Assembly (NCBI GenBank): GCA_951406725.2
Contig: OX597824.1
Coordinates: 90,644,001 to 90,708,000 of the forward strand
Length of the DNA stretch: 64,000 bases
Direction: 5' to 3'
Source of the DNA: Octopus vulgaris
Lineage: Eukaryota
Positions 58,498 through 58,757 of this stretch are shown piece after piece. A program made the translations under genes and the position numbers. Numbering within the stretch: position 1 is the first letter of the stretch; every line of letters starts with the position of its first letter. The notes below the pieces were generated by a model that was not told where the DNA came from, made no database searches, and saw nothing but the letters and a program-made list of their open reading frames with translations.

Positions 58498-58757
58498 GTT
58501 TGGGGAGAGTCATTTTCTTTTGTGCCTTATTATTTAACACACTCAACGGTAAAAATTTCCACTTTTTTCTTATTTTTATTTTCCTAAAATTTTCGTTGCG
58601 TGTTGCAACCTTTTCAATAGTTTTGACTCAAAACTATTGAAAAGGTTGCAACACGCAACGAAAATTTTAGAAAATGAAAATAAGAAAGAAGTGGAAAATT
58701 TACCGCCGGTGAGTGTATTACATTATATCGGCACAGCTCAATGCAGCTCCCCCAAAA
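58498..58757. mobile_element. fold-back element with U3:A8 hammerhead variants in both arms
   Basis: Perfect core palindrome 58584-58670 (centre 58627) that decays outwards; each arm reads CTA-TTGAAAA-G-GTTGC-aacac-GCAAC-GAAA-at-TT-TAG. Confidence 0.8.

Follow-up and report, generated by a model that had tools for sequence, protein, structure and literature searches.

Minimal hammerhead ribozymes (min-HHRs), which do without helix III, were described in 2014 with U3-A8 cores, an extra nucleotide and a 3-bp helix I (PMC4209133), and that paper places a U3-A8 variant in the Cercyon Penelope-like elements (PLEs) of Schistosoma mansoni, with ~1,300 hits, some paired on opposite strands. Stem II is preceded there by an unpaired nucleotide with the consensus H (G in one published row), and the motif tested showed no cleavage as a monomer and low cleavage as a dimer. 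Natural U3-A8 covariation of the 3-8 pair is also documented (PMC3088659), in a paper which states that such hammerheads had been shown to be active in vitro, and dimer cleavage is reviewed in PMC6765202, which cites Lunse et al. The anatomy of Penelope insertions is set out in PMC3846280 (inverted pLTR, one-sided tail, 8-10-bp target duplication (TSD), junction palindrome and first codons within the pLTR), the pLTR anatomy is described in PMC8557442 as well and an internal promoter in PMC2377424; PMC6155905 and bioRxiv 10.64898/2026.07.22.740005 are further prior art.

That Penelope repeats carry U3:A8 minimal hammerheads is already published: the variant that an earlier note on this DNA had pointed out is not novel (PMC4209133, PMC3088659), so that as a ribozyme variant the present case adds little. 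A literature search on octopus, Penelope and hammerhead returned no paper on the repeat family treated here (family A), of which an earlier report may exist. Its value lies in thousands of copies that share one sharp 5' limit and two fixed 3' ends, which make PLE priming, inversion and hammerhead use testable, and in a natural test pair within one genome, namely two related families with five compensatory pair differences, U3:A8 versus C9.

The palindrome and its two hammerhead motifs

The locus lies in the window (the whole 64-kb stretch of octopus DNA that was analysed) and is very probably a dead head-to-head pLTR pair of an EN+ PLE, with minimal U3:A8 hammerheads of the known kind that are likely slow dimer cutters in the parent tandem transcript and are predicted to be inactive here. 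Its parts are the following.

58426..58489, no strand: (TA)n microsatellite at the left end of the palindrome
58488..58626, minus strand: short tail-less arm, an inverted pLTR copy of family A with its end at about +131 from U3, inside (TA)n
58490..58513, minus strand: first ORF codons of the element (ATG at 58513-58511), typical of pLTR ends
58584..58620, minus strand: mirror hammerhead (U3 58617, A8 58612; predicted cut 58587/58586)
58627, no strand: midpoint of the head-to-head junction, from which U3 lies 10 nt downstream on each strand
58628..58727, plus strand: second arm, a pLTR copy of family A missing the ORF start and the tail to +185
58634..58670, plus strand: minimal type I hammerhead (U3 58637, A8 58642, extra G 58644; predicted cut 58667/58668)
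58719..58727, plus strand: 9-nt stretch common to families A and C, the switch point
58728..58849, plus strand: 3' end of another, older repeat (family C) of similar head-to-head anatomy

The palindrome has an odd centre (58627) and 43 perfect bp per side. Its right-arm hammerhead is made up of stem I CTA (58634-58636), TTGAAAA (58637-58643), the extra G (58644), GTTGC (58645-58649) and the loop AACAC, followed by GCAAC (58655-58659), GAA (58660-58662), AATT (58663-58666), U17 (58667) and TAG (58668-58670), and the left arm, read on the minus strand from 58620 to 58584, is its exact mirror. As RNA, each arm reads CUA UUGAAAA G GUUGC AACAC GCAAC GAA AAUU U UAG, with a 3-bp stem I (CUA/UAG), a 5-bp stem II and the four-base palindrome AAUU as helix III. 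The earlier note had correctly read the UUGAAAA core with U3:A8 and the 5-bp stem II (GUUGC/GCAAC) in both arms, and the fold it proposed is present; it had missed the extra G between A9 and G10.1 and that stem I has only 3 bp, and of its GAAA followed by a palindromic AAUU the palindrome stands, the last A of GAAA being the first A of AAUU.

In the numbering of the published min-HHR consensus (PMC4209133), the core boxes (C/U)UGAN(G/A)A, GAAA and UH with a Watson-Crick 3:8 pair appear as UUGAAAA, GAAA and UU, the helix II closing pair G10.1-C11.1 is preceded by an unpaired nucleotide (G here versus the usual H), and a short helix I is combined with a palindromic 15.1-16.1 segment (CUA/UAG, AAUU). 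A minimal-hammerhead descriptor, written with the motif already known, matched none of 5000 dinucleotide-shuffled versions of the arm and, in the 64-kb window, only the two arm sites. The Rfam covariance-model scan of the window gave 0 hits at the gathering score, which has no bearing on the min-HHR class because minimal forms lack helix III. At the level of sequence, both arms are thus confirmed to carry a real minimal hammerhead motif, whose self-cleavage is a prediction.

The closest relatives described in PMC4209133 share the U3-A8 core, the unpaired nucleotide 9/10.1, G10.1-C11.1, a short helix I, a palindromic 15.2-16.2 segment, the site in pLTRs and opposite-strand pairs, and its Crassostrea gigas row matches in the GAAA-A-U-U-U end and the 3/5-bp helices. 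Unlike the variants in that paper, the motif here has G as the extra nucleotide, a helix II of 5 bp, another host lineage and at least 5,457 copies versus ~1,300. With the natural U3-A8 hammerheads of PMC3088659 it shares the covariation of the 3-8 pair, but those are full three-helix ribozymes, whereas the present motif is without a stable helix III.

Beyond 58727 the right arm is family C sequence, not family A, and ends at 58849; this switch to an older repeat at 58719-58727 explains both the missing tail and the outward decay of the arms that had been noted earlier, a description that fits this copy only. No TSD is readable at the locus because the left end is (TA)n and the right end also adjoins TA-rich repeats.

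Family A, its parent element and a sister family

The 16-mer around the core has 5,457 exact copies in the 2.8-Gb genome, against 1 for the reversed control, and these U3A8 copies compare with 251 for C3A8 and 231 for G8 forms. This count on genomic copies, a check that the earlier note had proposed, shows that U3:A8 is the consensus of family A. Among the arms examined, U3 is present in 106/108 and A8 in 105/112 (six loci had been chosen for G8), and U4, G5, A6, A9, G12, A13, A14, A15.1, U16.1, H17 and G10.1-C11.1 are all kept. C3:G8 doubles, six among the first 100 G8 sites listed and hence ~14/231, are no commoner than two independent mutations would produce (chance expectation ~10, from 251 x 217 / 5457), so that covariation within family A was rejected and its C3:G8 copies are ordinary decay after insertion.

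The insertions were studied in 78 unique sites, 56 of them palindromic, obtained with a first query that favoured palindromes, and in 40 unselected sites taken in pattern-list order, skipping one known long copy and the second members of pairs. Inverted pairs make up 19/40 of the unselected sites. Their arms are unequal, with the long arm ending +177..+185 from U3 in 54/56 palindromic loci and the short arm +123..+135 in 52/56, i.e. 3' ends at about +185 and +130 and a one-sided tail of ~55 nt. TSDs of at least 7 bp flank 39/51 palindromic loci, as opposed to 5% among 2,550 mismatched pairs of flanks, a few being microsatellite matches, and vary in length (7-15 bp). Arm-to-arm mismatch from centre to end is flat over the 56 palindromic loci (7.2, 8.0, 5.1, 7.1 and 5.7%), and a gradient of arm identity was rejected as a family trait. 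The loop variant AACAC, present in both arms here, is a minority form (9/114 arms).

Upstream, long family A copies cross a CA-rich 3' region and reach an ORF with a YVDD RT, a CTNDNCMVC linker (P0002) and, at the C terminus, a GIY-YIG domain (Pfam PF01541, 24.5 bits, cut-off 22.6); the RT Pfam matches of the linked ORFs are below cut-off (E 0.008-0.012), and Atlas neighbours carry RVT_1/GIY-YIG/HTH_animal at 0.97. RT and C-terminal GIY-YIG share a single ORF in L100 (665-aa frame), L063 and L067; in L100 the motif follows the end of the ORF at a distance of ~0.67 kb. The 3' part of the arm corresponds to the first ORF codons, which run on into the N-terminus in the partial tandem L067 and also begin the sister ORF. 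The pLTR with first ORF codons, the partial tandems, the inverted copy with a one-sided tail and the TSD are those of EN+ PLEs. A CX2-5CxxC linker (in the CX4CxxC form) and CCHH around GIY-YIG (P0001, P0002) point to Neptune or Nematis, an assignment based on these sequence motifs; the C-terminal position of GIY-YIG, not N-terminal, rules out Naiad, and the presence of CCHH rules out the Hydra clade.

The C-terminal-EN PLEs of these two groups, as characterized in PMC8557442, resemble the element in RT, CX2-5CxxC linker, GIY-YIG with CCHH, a bias towards (TA)n and an inverted, 5'-truncated copy with a one-sided tail, although the tail measures ~55 nt here versus 30-40 there. The Adineta vaga Penelope of PMC3846280 shares with family A the head-to-head inverted pLTRs, palindromic junction, TSD and ORF codons in the pLTR, and with the sister family the N-rich insert in a ~1,310-aa ORF. 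Unlike in those elements, most insertions here consist of the pLTR alone and break off sharply on the 5' side, just before the hammerhead.

The sister family (L114), whose protein is 61% identical to that of family A over 670 aa, has intact 1,312-aa frames with an N-rich insert and 2,144 exact 26-mer copies (pattern search). Its hammerheads, at L114:7018-7062 and 2430-2474 (G000:C17), have C3:G8, C9 and the extra G (CUGAUGCG, 18/18 loci read) and lie at a matching position, ~135 nt before the ATG versus ~103 in family A. A literature search for 'A9C' found no matching paper, and an earlier report of a C9 core may exist. When the two families are aligned by structure, the sister core being itself deviant (C9), both sides change in 5/11 pairs (one in stem I, 3:8, two in stem II, and 15.2-16.2), six are identical and none is broken. 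Within this two-family comparison, that supports selection on the hammerhead fold in the parent elements. The claim that a compensatory change argues for selection therefore holds between the families, not within family A nor between the two arms, which are copies of one template and do not count as independent evidence.

Insertion ends and the use of the hammerhead

In all 30 loci retrieved with a query covering +61 to +188 the junction falls within -35 to +49, and 23/30 read through the predicted cut at +31; among these 30 family A loci there is no junction hot spot at that position. Of the unselected sites, 32/40 stop between -26 and -3 and 8/40 run past -124, with none between, and 8/21 of the non-inverted ones stop at -16 or later. 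In the sister family an end falls within 2 nt of the predicted cut at 2/30 loci, too few to count. Across this 5' border, depth also drops ~25-fold in contigs from two other organisms, in runs whose type is not on record. The templates were likely uncleaved RNAs starting just upstream of the core, since no such 5' limit is expected from a ligated circle, and an RNA that had been cut would terminate at +31. Some further junctions may arise by fold-back at an AGTC-AA-GACT hairpin (-11..-2).

The pair would have formed when two nicked target strands each primed one cDNA at one of two fixed sites. Both cDNAs would have reached the RNA 5' end ~10-25 nt upstream of the core, where their ends may have been joined by microhomology with the aid of the small AGTC-AA-GACT hairpin; the right arm would have lost its tail later, by deletion or by a switch at the 9-nt match with the older repeat. 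Self-priming on an antisense template (PMC3846280) is an alternative that would give a picture similar to such twin priming. A more specific version, plausible but on balance falling somewhat short of an even chance, is that most insertions of family A are 'strong-stop' copies, with an uncleaved transcript primed at two fixed sites close to where the ORF starts and RT passing through the intact U3:A8 hammerhead to a TSS about 10-25 nt upstream of the core. If so, thousands of genomic junctions would map the RNA 5' end and show that the ribozyme is off in the 5' pLTR and needs pairing with its 3' pLTR counterpart to cut.

At the present locus the hammerheads are predicted by folding to be inactive: read-through RNA over the palindrome forms a -159 kcal/mol hairpin that buries both motifs (stem II probability 0.0 on both strands), whereas a single arm alone gives 0.98. 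In cofolding, under an energy model that ignores core contacts, an 8-bp AAAAUUUU duplex (-15.6) hiding A13, A14 and U17 was preferred to the double hammerhead (-5.4). In two RNA runs, raw reads cover the motif on both strands at like depth, 86-89% of them continuing into unlike sequence; most are <90% identical, and they show no pile-up of ends, which has no bearing on cleavage because this library type cannot reveal ends. In two other organisms the U3 and A8 places are not among the 40 differences listed, with 88 more beyond those listed.

The strongest competing account accepts the same origin but holds that the fold was kept for a non-catalytic job (RNP/RT recognition or a promoter element) after cleavage was lost. 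The read-through of the cut site at 23/30 loci of the downstream query fits it, as do C9 in 18/18 loci read of the young, intact sister family, the mostly CUUAAGA core of the older family C and the low published activity of such motifs (PMC4209133). We regard it as doubtful, given that family A retains all the core nucleotides listed above together with G10.1-C11.1 and that the 3:8 tertiary pair, important for an active core (PMC3088659), co-varies; the 2/30 sister loci with ends at most 2 nt from the predicted cut weigh weakly in the same direction.

That the palindrome itself was selected as a host or element ribozyme, with its arms as dimer partners, is very improbable. Although 43 perfect bp per side span both cores and the minority loop AACAC is common to both arms, the cores lie on opposite strands, so the arms are not dimer partners, and the predicted read-through hairpin eliminates stem II, which counts against a dimeric ribozyme. 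Moreover, about half of the unselected copies are inverted pairs, no gradient exists family-wide, and a 43-bp perfect run has a ~6% chance at ~6.5% mismatch. Finally, a MITE or fold-back DNA transposon with inverted repeats that are hammerhead-like by chance, for which spacer-less long inverted arms and many copies might speak, can hardly be right: arm ends are fixed but unequal where such elements have equal TIRs, junctions are variable, TSDs vary from 7 to 15 bp where a fixed length is typical, solo copies and long RT-bearing copies with the linked RT/GIY-YIG ORF occur, and the descriptor matched by chance in none of the 5000 shuffles.

Related repeats and neighbouring sequences

The family C segment at window 58728-58849 was matched by 40/40 scored candidates, 39 others being 74-87% identical. 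This family (also L184-L208) occurs as head-to-head copies with a fixed 3' end before (TA)n, with no ORF tied to it. It carries a hammerhead-like remnant with CUUAAGA or CUGAAGA, G, GAAA and a palindromic ACGCGCGU, the core mostly reading CUUAAGA; a stem I was sought for this motif and none was assignable.

Sister-family sequences are also present in the window, where a head-to-head sister pLTR pair at 35255-35465 has an inverted arm ending in microhomology that spans the predicted cut site. Directly to its left (35000-35140, centre near 35046) is another perfect palindrome. At 7/30 sister loci (L114 about 6953-6970) the junctions form a loose cluster 52-71 nt upstream of C3, a possible transcription start. 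Family A and the sister family both retain a splice-donor-like GTGAGT/GTGCGT ~30 nt ahead of the ATG (window 58710-58716, plus strand; L114:7127-7133). At 57260-57295 of the window, GAAACCGGTC and its palindromic segment look like the 3' half of a further minimal hammerhead, with no matching 5' core seen. A SINE-like repeat, which we take to be an octopus-type SINE, occupies 59061-59460, with decayed relatives at 56190-56340, 56990-57140 and 57780-57850.
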